Below are positions 1-3,000 of a stretch of DNA of 32,000 nucleotides, piece after piece. This stretch comes from Vibrio cholerae ATCC 14035. Lineage in GTDB: Bacteria; Pseudomonadota; Gammaproteobacteria; Enterobacterales; Vibrionaceae. Location: positions 86,483 through 118,482 of the forward strand of contig NZ_JHXR01000010.1 of assembly GCF_000621645.1 (NCBI RefSeq), read 5' to 3'. Position 1 is the first letter of the stretch, and each line of letters begins with the position of its first letter. The position numbers are program-made.

Positions 1-3000
1 GCATCGACTTGCGGGTGCATCAAGCGCTCAGCATGATCAATCGCATCGAGTGCTTGATACTGCTCTTGCAGCGCCGTACGCACCACCAATAAATGGTCGG
101 GATCTTGCTCTTGCGCTTGGCTTAACTCCATCAGCTCAGCACGCAGTGCGATGATCGACTCCACCAAGCTTTTTTGCTGCTGCCAACTCTGTGTCAACGC
201 GGCTTTTTCCGCTTCATCGGCCAACTCTTGATTACGCAAAACATCGAGGCGCTCGCTATCGACCTCTTGGCCAAGGAATTGCGCCCGCTCTAGCATGTCA
301 ATTTCGAGTTGACGCTGATGGCACAAGGTTTCAAGTAGCGCTAAACGCTTAGGTGGCGTGGTCATATTGATCGCAATCCGCGCACAAGCGGTATCCAGCA
401 CATCAATCGCTTTATCGGGCAGTTGACGACCTGAGATGTAACGCGCTGACAGTTCAGCGGCAGCTTTTAGTGCATCATCAGTGATCAGTACGTTGTGTGC
501 CTTTTCATAGACACTGTTAAGACCGCGCAGAATATCGACGGCTTGATCGATCGTTGGTTCATCGAGTTTGACCAGTTGGAAACGGCGCGTCAGCGCGGGA
601 TCTTTTTCAAAATACTTTTTGTACTCTTTCCACGTCGTCGCCGCCACTGTGCTTAACTCACCACGCGCCAGCGCAGGCTTGAGCAAGTTTGCCGCATCAC
701 TGCCCCCTTCTTGGTTACCAGAACCAATTAAGGTGTGCGCTTCATCGATGAATAAAATGATCGGTTTAGGCGATTGCTTAATCGCATCAATCACCCCTTT
801 TAGGCGCTTTTCGAACTCGCCTTTCACCGATGCACCCGCTTGCAAGCGACCAAGATCCAACGAATAGAGTTCTACATTTTGCAGTTGGGTGGGCACTTTG
901 CCAGCCACCACACGCAGCGCCAAACCTTCAATCATGGCACTTTTACCAACACCTGCTTCACCCACCACAATCGGGTTGTTTTTGCGGCGACGGCACAGAA
1001 TATCCACCATCAAGTTGAGTTCATTTTCACGGCTCAGGACAGGATCAAGCTCACCGTTACGGGCTTGCTCAGTCACATTCGTGCAAAAGCGTCCGAGTGG
1101 TGTTTCTGCGGCGGCTTGCAGTGGATTGGCCGCATTTTTGTCTGTTTTAGCCACTGCGGTTTCTGCAGAATCACTTAAGATCATCGCAAAGTGTTTTTTG
1201 AGGTTTTCGCGGTTGATGCCTTCAAACAAACTGATCAATTTGAATGACAGATAACGGTCCGCACGGGTCAGCGCGGCTAAGAAAATCGCCCCTGAACGCA
1301 GCTCAGCCTGCTCTAACTCGGTACTGGAAAGCAGCCAAGCTTCTTGCAGTAACTCGACCAGCAGTGGCGAAAACGCTGGATAGGTATCCAAGACCTGTTC
1401 ACGGCTATAGGTTGATGCGATGGCCTGTTTCACCTGATCGACTTCCAGCCCCGCTTGCTTGAGTACGAGACGCACATCAGAGAGGGGATTATCCAGTAAC
1501 ACATCCAGATAATATTCTAGAGTGACTTCAGGGTGTTGGCGCTCAATACAGAGAGAGGCAGCTTGCTCCAGAGCCAATTTGCTTTGTGCATTCAGTTTTG
1601 CAATAAGAGTGGGTAATTCAATACGGATCACAACGTACCACCTAGCCTAATTATGTTTAAAGTATTTGATTGAGTTGATTGAGCACATCGCTGGATTTGC
1701 TATGCAGTACATAGCTGTAGCCGAGAAATAGACCTACCCAAAGCACGATAAAGCCAGCAAACACAGACCAAACAGGCATCTGTCTGCTTAGGGTATATTT
1801 CGCACGCACCACATGATCGGTCGGACGGGTTAAGTCTTGTGGCTCGCTCTCTTCCAAGCTGCTCAGCAGTTGATGCAGGCGGCTGATCACTTTTTCGCGC
1901 TCAGCTTGTCCCCCTTCCATCACACGGTATTTGCCTTCAAAGCCCAAAATCAGGCAATGATAAATAAAGGCCAATAGCGCTTGGTAACGGTGTGGTTCAC
2001 CCTCAAGACGGCTCAAAATCGTAAACACTTTCTCGCCACCCCACGTTTCATTATGGAAGCGTGACAGCATGGAGTGCTCGGCCCATAAACTGGACGCGCC
2101 CCACTCGGTTCCCATCACGGATTCATCCAAAAAGGCGCACAAGATGTAGCGATAGGCCATCAAAATGGCGTGTTCGTAACCTTGCTCCGTCAACTCAATT
2201 TCAATCGCTTTGATCTCTTCAATCGTCTGACGGTAGATCTGTTCAATGTTGTCGCATTCGGTGAGGGTACGAACCCGCAGAGAAAGCCCAAACAAGGGTG
2301 TCGCGGCATCAATCAGCACATTCGGATTGTCCCCACGCAATTGGAACCAGTAGTCTTGGTCGTGGTTAATTTTTTCCACATCGTCGAACAACAAACTGGC
2401 TAATGGCGTCTCTTTTTTACTCTGTGACATGGTTAGCTCCTGATAGCCCAGAATTGCAGCTCAAGATCGTCAAAAGCTGCAGCAACGTGGAACGCAAAAC
2501 CGCTGGAATGAGTCAACATCGCCCATGCAGCGCTGGTTTTATCCAGTTGGTAGTAGGTGTAGCCAGCGTGGTAAGGCAATTGGCGCGGTGCGACGGGTAA
2601 TGGCGTCAATGGAATACCCGGCAGTTGCAGTGAGATGAGTTCACGAATTTTCTCAACCGATGCCACTTTGGTTTGCTGAGTAAACAGACGGCGTAGCTCA
2701 TCCAACGGCATGCGAGCTTTAACCGCGATGATAAACTCTGCACTCTCCATCAGTTGCGGATCATGGATTGGCGCAACCATCAAACCGTACTTACGTTTAT
2801 CCAGTTGGATAGAGACGGCACGCGGCTCTAGCACCACGCTCAAGCTCTGACGCAAGCTGCGGATCAGCGGCTGGAAAGAGTGGCTGGGTGAATCATGGTT
2901 ATAGCTTGGCAAACTGGGCGGCAGACGACTTTCGTCAGTAAAGGTAGCCAGCTCACCACACACACACACGAGAGACATTCAAACAGACGCTCTGGGTGTA

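Follow-up and report, generated by a model that had tools for sequence, protein, structure and literature searches.

The large type VI secretion system (T6SS) cluster of Vibrio cholerae ATCC 14035 contains a baseplate gene, tssK (also named vasE), whose reading frame is broken within a run of GT dinucleotides, and this raises the question of whether the run is a reversible switch governing T6SS firing or the scar of a past mutation. We examined the gene within a 32,000-nucleotide stretch of contig NZ_JHXR01000010.1 (assembly GCF_000621645.1, positions 86,483 to 118,482 of the forward strand), referred to here as the window, which belongs to chromosome 2 of a sixth-pandemic, classical-biotype V. 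cholerae, either O395 or a relative that cannot be told apart from it. We hold with high confidence that the broken gene is a real, fixed and clonally inherited slippage lesion of the classical lineage, and that it reflects neutral decay in an already disabled T6SS and not a regulatory device.

The gene is the orthologue of VCA0114, and the parts into which it is divided are as follows, where ORF denotes an open reading frame.

2433..3769, minus strand: tssK/vasE (VCA0114 orthologue) pseudogene, 1337 nucleotides long as against 1335 in the intact gene.

2864..3769, minus strand: N-terminal ORF of 301 residues, made up of 270 native TssK residues followed by 31 that are read out of frame; the stop codon is at 2864-2866.

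2433..2978, minus strand: C-terminal ORF of 181 residues in the -1 frame, with an ATG at 2978; a predicted ORF only, spanning the remainder of the neck and all of the head domain.

2957..2968, minus strand: coding-strand (GT)6 tract, which reads (CA)6 on the plus strand; 13 nucleotides if counted as 2957..2969.

The two ORFs overlap by 115 nucleotides, and the junction on the minus strand reads GAA TGT CTC TCG TGT GTG TGT GTG GTG AGC. The tract occupies codons 266-270 of 444, about 60% along its length, and in its wild-type (GT)5 form these codons (TCG TGT GTG TGT GGT) specify Ser-Cys-Val-Cys-Gly. Removal of one GT unit in silico gives (GT)5 and a single ORF of 444 residues reading ...ECLSCVCGELATF...; a tract of eight units gives a 446-residue ORF, and tracts of 4, 6 or 7 units give truncations. 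Both halves match TIGR03353, the NCBIfam model for TssK, the N-terminal half over profile positions 1-258 of 429 (275.5 bits) and the C-terminal half over positions 253-429 of 429 (213.6 bits), and both lie above the curated cut-off of 100 bits for membership of TIGR03353/PF05936. The uninterrupted frame of about 444 codons expected of a TssK gene is absent, and because the +2 frameshift leaves ORFs of 301 and 181 residues in its place, we regard tssK as a pseudogene of the TssK family. It lies between tssJ (upstream) and tssL (downstream), an arrangement shared with the intact loci L007-L016. A preliminary description of the window had named the gene, placed the frameshift inside the GT run and predicted that deletion of one GT would fuse the two halves into a 444-codon gene, and all of these readings, with their coordinates, are confirmed to the base. 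Apart from (GT)6, no dinucleotide run in the window reaches five units, and the (GT)6 run was found in 0 of 100 dinucleotide-preserving shuffles; the wild-type tract is less remarkable, with (GT)5 present in 6 of 100 shuffles of an intact 21-kb locus.

Five units is the intact state, as all ten of the diverse intact loci compared have (GT)5, and the 444-residue protein obtained by repair to (GT)5 is identical to P0121, the common TssK of V. cholerae, which is encoded on at least 1000 contigs and in 11,140 index blocks. All six classical-type loci that were read as DNA (the window, L001 and L111-L114, of which L001 and L111 are one contig) have (GT)6. Using exact-sequence look-up, the 301-residue fragment was found to be identical to ABQ18870.1 of V. 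cholerae O395 and to occur on 52 contigs in 114 index blocks, and the 181-residue C-terminal ORF is identical to P0135.

This lesion has been described before. Kostiuk et al. 2021 (Nat Commun 12:6457, PMC8578542) report insertions of 2 nucleotides in vasE and of 1 nucleotide in vipA, each for 25 of 26 classical sequences, together with a 12-nucleotide deletion in vasN (26/26) and an 8-nucleotide deletion in vasK (VCA0120; 24/26). Because the vasE, vipA and vasN lesions had all been described there, the tssK pseudogene reported here is a rediscovery of a known lesion. When it is set against the vasE insertion of sixth-pandemic classical V. cholerae, the gene, the insertion, the lineage and the companion lesions (vipA +1 and the 12-nucleotide vasN deletion) are the same, and there is no difference in substance. 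The insertion had reportedly been noted before that in an analysis of strain O395 by Miyata et al. 2010, as cited in Kostiuk et al. 2021. The classical T6SS is taken as established to be non-functional in a 2023 paper, and the tssK lesion is part of the published account of why classical V. cholerae, without T6SS firing, lost to El Tor. Its re-detection from raw sequence adds no new biology.

Of the classical set of alleles, the vasE +2, vipA +1 and 12-nucleotide vasN changes are all present in the window. The window breaks off within clpV, and vasK is located past its start; the vasK lesion is known from PMC8578542. The two companion lesions within the window are as follows.

10447..10954, minus strand: vipA/tssB pseudogene, with an extra T at 10780/10781.

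8500..8925, minus strand: tssE/vasN (VCA0109 orthologue) with an in-frame 12-nucleotide deletion, encoding 141 residues as against 145.

The extra T in vipA converts GTA GAT AAG to GTA GAT TAA, creating a premature stop after 58 codons, and is also present in L111-L114. In tssE/vasN the sequence GCGTTCTGGTGA is missing at about position 8634 relative to four intact loci. A 13.8-kb alignment of the window with four intact loci contains exactly three private internal indels (the GT in tssK, the T in vipA, and the loss of 12 nucleotides from tssE/vasN), and within tssK the extra GT is the sole indel.

The most likely origin of the extra unit is a single replication-slippage event that expanded the coding (GT)5 tract to (GT)6. 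The resulting +2 frameshift stops translation once 270 native residues and a foreign tail of 31 have been made, and the baseplate protein loses some of its neck and its entire C-terminal head domain. The tssK lesion is one of several gathered in a cluster that the vasN deletion had probably disabled earlier, and has been passed on clonally. The order of events comes from the published phylogeny, in which the vasN deletion is placed first, followed by the vasE and vipA lesions, with that of vasK last, and the vasN deletion moved alone into strain V52 is reported to disable the T6SS (main text of PMC8578542). We favour neutral gene decay because the cluster would already have been disabled by this older vasN deletion.

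The TssK structures 5y0e and 5m30 match the repaired protein along its full length, and crystallographic TssK constructs comprise either an N-terminal part (approximately residues 1-312; 5mwn and 6n38) or a C-terminal part (approximately residues 317-442; 5m2y). Because the break at residue 270 precedes residues ~317-442, it is predicted to eliminate the whole C-terminal head domain, as well as to cut the N-terminal part short. In TssK of enteroaggregative Escherichia coli the head is in contact with the membrane complex and the N-terminal shoulder with TssFG, and the same contacts are presumably made by the V. cholerae protein. Deletion of VCA0114 in strain V52 abolishes both Hcp secretion and killing (Zheng et al. 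2011). The expectation in the preliminary description that this allele abolishes T6SS firing thus stands in principle, but in this genome, with its other lesions, the effect is redundant.

Two explanations would leave TssK function intact. If the extra GT were a sequencing or assembly error in one record, the gene itself would be whole, and it is true that some platforms miscall dinucleotide runs and that the preliminary description was made from the sequence with no sight of the reads. However, the identical 301-residue product is encoded on all 52 contigs (114 blocks), which come from both National Center for Biotechnology Information (NCBI) records and independent Logan re-assemblies of public read sets; the six classical-type loci (with L001 and L111 again the same contig) share (GT)6 together with other classical markers; and the insertion is published for 25 of the 26 classical sequences in PMC8578542. 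Because the same allele recurs across many independent assemblies and has also been published, we put the chance of an error at practically nil, and the earlier view of the allele as a true loss of function holds. Alternatively, TssK function might be kept in spite of the frameshift, either by -1 ribosomal frameshifting within the 115-nucleotide overlap or by separate translation of the 181-residue ORF and reassembly of the two fragments. The overlap of the ORFs, the ATG at the start of the C-terminal one, and the separate folding of N- and C-terminal TssK parts in the crystallographic constructs are all in keeping with such a rescue. Reading by eye, with no formal scan, revealed neither a slippery heptamer of the form X XXY YYZ in the overlap nor a recognizable Shine-Dalgarno sequence ahead of the ATG at 2978, and the break at residue 270 falls within the N-terminal construct (~1-312) and off the domain boundary. 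Moreover, other parts of the T6SS are broken anyway and classical strains are without T6SS activity, such that rescue of TssK is extremely improbable.

A search with the classical 141-residue TssE returned 24 contigs in four neighbourhood classes, and (GT)6 together with the extra T in vipA is present in all four places shown; no revertant was seen in this sample of four places standing for 24 classical-type contigs. Counted as index blocks, the products of the different tract lengths are very unevenly represented, with 11,140 for (GT)5, 114 for (GT)6, all from one clonal lineage, and about 9 for (GT)4. Products of 2, 3, 7, 8 and 9 GT units were absent from the collection by exact look-up in the dominant amino-acid background. 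The (GT)4 alleles are located in L002-L006 and L105-L108 (with the tract in the L105:10790 region), and yield products of 270 and 181 residues (P0180 and P0138). Isolates with (GT)4 are ERR2269712, ERR4175573, SRR25120534, GCA_023165145.1/DRR213479, ERR5312379 and strain DN35, the last with KFE06487.1/KFE06504.1.

The backgrounds of these (GT)4 alleles were compared over 17.7 kb with (GT)5 loci. L106 has no single nucleotide polymorphisms (SNPs) relative to the commonest (GT)5 haplotype (L007/L009), and L105 and L108, which may be one isolate assembled twice, have 2 and 0 SNPs, respectively, relative to another (GT)5 locus, L013. L107 is at least 97 SNPs from all others, and the three (GT)4 backgrounds are 131-141 SNPs apart per 17.7 kb. 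The simplest reading of these comparisons is that at least three independent contractions to (GT)4 have occurred in addition to the classical expansion, a count biased by a search that was aimed at tract variants; spread of a (GT)4 allele by short-patch recombination is less parsimonious. On this reading, with at least three contractions and one expansion, all independent, the tract is a recurrent slippage hot spot in V. cholerae. Slippage is also favoured as the origin of the classical allele because (GT)4 recurs on at least three haplotypes, two of them only 0-2 SNPs from a (GT)5 sibling. Since contraction to (GT)4 has affected at least three haplotypes apart from the classical one, the tract should be usable in genome surveys as a marker of T6SS-null isolates. 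In the main text of Kostiuk et al. (PMC8578542) the words slippage, phase variation and revert are absent, and its three uses of 'repeat' concern other matters; because that main text is silent on slippage, phase variation and revertants, both the setting of the insertion within a GT tract and the occurrence of (GT)4 in other lineages may be undescribed.

Three further candidates were set aside. P0144 (176 residues, starting MCGELATF) was rejected as a tract variant, being a scaffold-gap artefact with (GT)5. P0136 (181 residues, MNVSRVGELATF) combines numerous dispersed substitutions with a second frameshift, and was left unused as the presumed product of a noisy assembly. The start of L006, 80 nucleotides upstream of the tract, was considered as an assembly-graph bubble formed by mixed tract lengths, and was dropped as uninformative in view of the word sizes that assemblers typically use.

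The repeat itself is poorly conserved. In the sister species V. metoecus the corresponding sequence is TCT TCG GTG TGT GGT, or (GT)3, and in V. anguillarum the same SCVC peptide is encoded by TCA TGC GTA TGT, without a repeat; the V. metoecus sequence and a cholerae-like allele were obtained by exact protein look-up. Among the matches listed, 55 orthologues from other species have three or fewer GT units. Within V. cholerae, the tract of the VcPa lineage (L110) reads TCG TGC GTG TGC GGT, and is interrupted by two synonymous TGT>TGC changes. From these comparisons the (GT)5 microsatellite in tssK appears to be unique to V. cholerae. A variable-gap scan of metagenomes returned two contigs (L103:1892-1932 and L104:5252-5292) with flanks of 14-16 nucleotides identical to those in V. 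cholerae tssK, and both have TCC ACG ATT GCT (STIA) in place of the tract, as in TssK of the V. tubiashii type; because these codons replace the tract, the two contigs are uninformative as to its length. The VcPa strains (DRR223437) also have a separate tssK knockout, a CAA>TAA change at codon 247 (L110:2239-2241), which is present on 12 contigs. In addition, a TssK that is 96% identical to the V. cholerae protein (P0123; L100-L102; 166 index blocks) is labelled as V. vulnificus, and this suggests that a cholerae-like T6SS cluster may be present in that species.

These data bear on the possibility, raised in the preliminary description, that the tract provides reversible ON/OFF switching. In its full form, the GT run would be a contingency locus at which slipped-strand mispairing toggles tssK, and hence T6SS firing, between ON at (GT)5 and OFF at (GT)4 or (GT)6, as a form of bet-hedging. 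The tract does resemble the contingency loci of Haemophilus, Neisseria, Campylobacter and Helicobacter in being a short tandem repeat within a coding region at which slippage shifts the frame, its length has changed independently at least four times within V. cholerae (one classical expansion, plus three or more contractions to (GT)4), and every OFF length is a single slippage step from ON. However, contingency loci built on simple sequence repeats have long, selected tracts that usually lie near the 5' end of the gene, with frequent ON and OFF lengths in close relatives. The tssK tract differs in each of these respects, with just five units in the wild type at codons 266-270 of 444, and it is species-specific, not maintained and 99% monomorphic. 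The counts are those of a near-monomorphic tract: (GT)5 predominates, (GT)6 belongs to one clone, (GT)4 is confined to about nine blocks, and lengths of 2, 3, 7, 8 and 9 units are absent. The repeat is not conserved in V. metoecus, V. anguillarum, the 55 other orthologues among the matches listed, or the VcPa lineage, and all four places shown for the 24 classical-type contigs are (GT)6.

Reversion of the tract would also be of no use in this genome, and could not restore firing, because vipA (extra T) and vasN (12-nucleotide deletion) are also broken and vasK is reported to carry its 8-nucleotide deletion (PMC8578542); neither reversion nor slippage is mentioned in the main text of that paper. 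The features by which a contingency locus might be recognized, namely maintenance of the repeat across relatives, ON and OFF lengths both common among close relatives, and recovery of the phenotype on reversion, were not found. Switching is therefore unsupported here, because the classical lineage is fixed for the allele, the repeat is both short and unconserved, no revertant is present in the 24-contig sample, and two more disabling lesions lie in the window, with that of vasK reported outside it; we consider it very unlikely. A related proposal is that the (GT)5 run is a recurrent weak point, and acts in otherwise intact lineages as a low-rate, in principle reversible, T6SS switch of ecological consequence. 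We regard this as unlikely, with a small chance of being correct. Recurrence of tract change is established by at least four independent events, and reversibility and selective value are conjecture. The commonest haplotype, and with it one of the lineages affected by (GT)4, is probably that of seventh-pandemic El Tor.

Several points weigh against a fixed, neutrally decaying lesion as the full account of the tract. The evidence consists of assemblies and not reads, and tract heterogeneity within cultures is possible. Both neutrality and the order of mutations depend on a published tree, and recurrent tract changes in other lineages point to a site of above-average mutability, which leaves slight room for switching at a low rate where the T6SS is otherwise intact.

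Loss of the T6SS through small indels in the large cluster, confined to particular lineages, is also seen in environmental isolates from the Rio Grande with vasH frameshifts (Unterweger et al. 2012, as cited in a passage of PMC7702109), although both the gene and the site differ from the tssK tract. A vasH frameshift is likewise present in one of the (GT)4 strains, GCA_023165145.1, in which a homopolymer insertion (G4>G5) at about position 15050 of L105 divides the gene into ORFs of 105 and 427 residues; vasH is intact in the sibling locus L013.

The remaining T6SS genes identified in the window are listed below.

1657..2430, minus strand: tssL/vasF, intact ORF.

3776..4252, minus strand: tssJ, intact ORF.

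4255..5742, minus strand: fha/tagH, intact ORF.

5745..6761, minus strand: tssG, intact ORF.

6725..8494, minus strand: tssF, intact ORF.

8928..10406, minus strand: tssC/vipB, intact ORF.

Together with tssE, these neighbouring genes (tssL, tssJ, fha/tagH, tssG, tssF and tssC) are arranged as in the large T6SS cluster of V. cholerae. In one complete classical-type genome (AP026559.1; L113:7432-9199) tssF is split into ORFs of 401 and 162 residues, reflecting either further decay or a long-read error. Outside the window, an intact cluster contains a (CT)5 run in a vasJ/tssA-like gene (L007:17126-17135).
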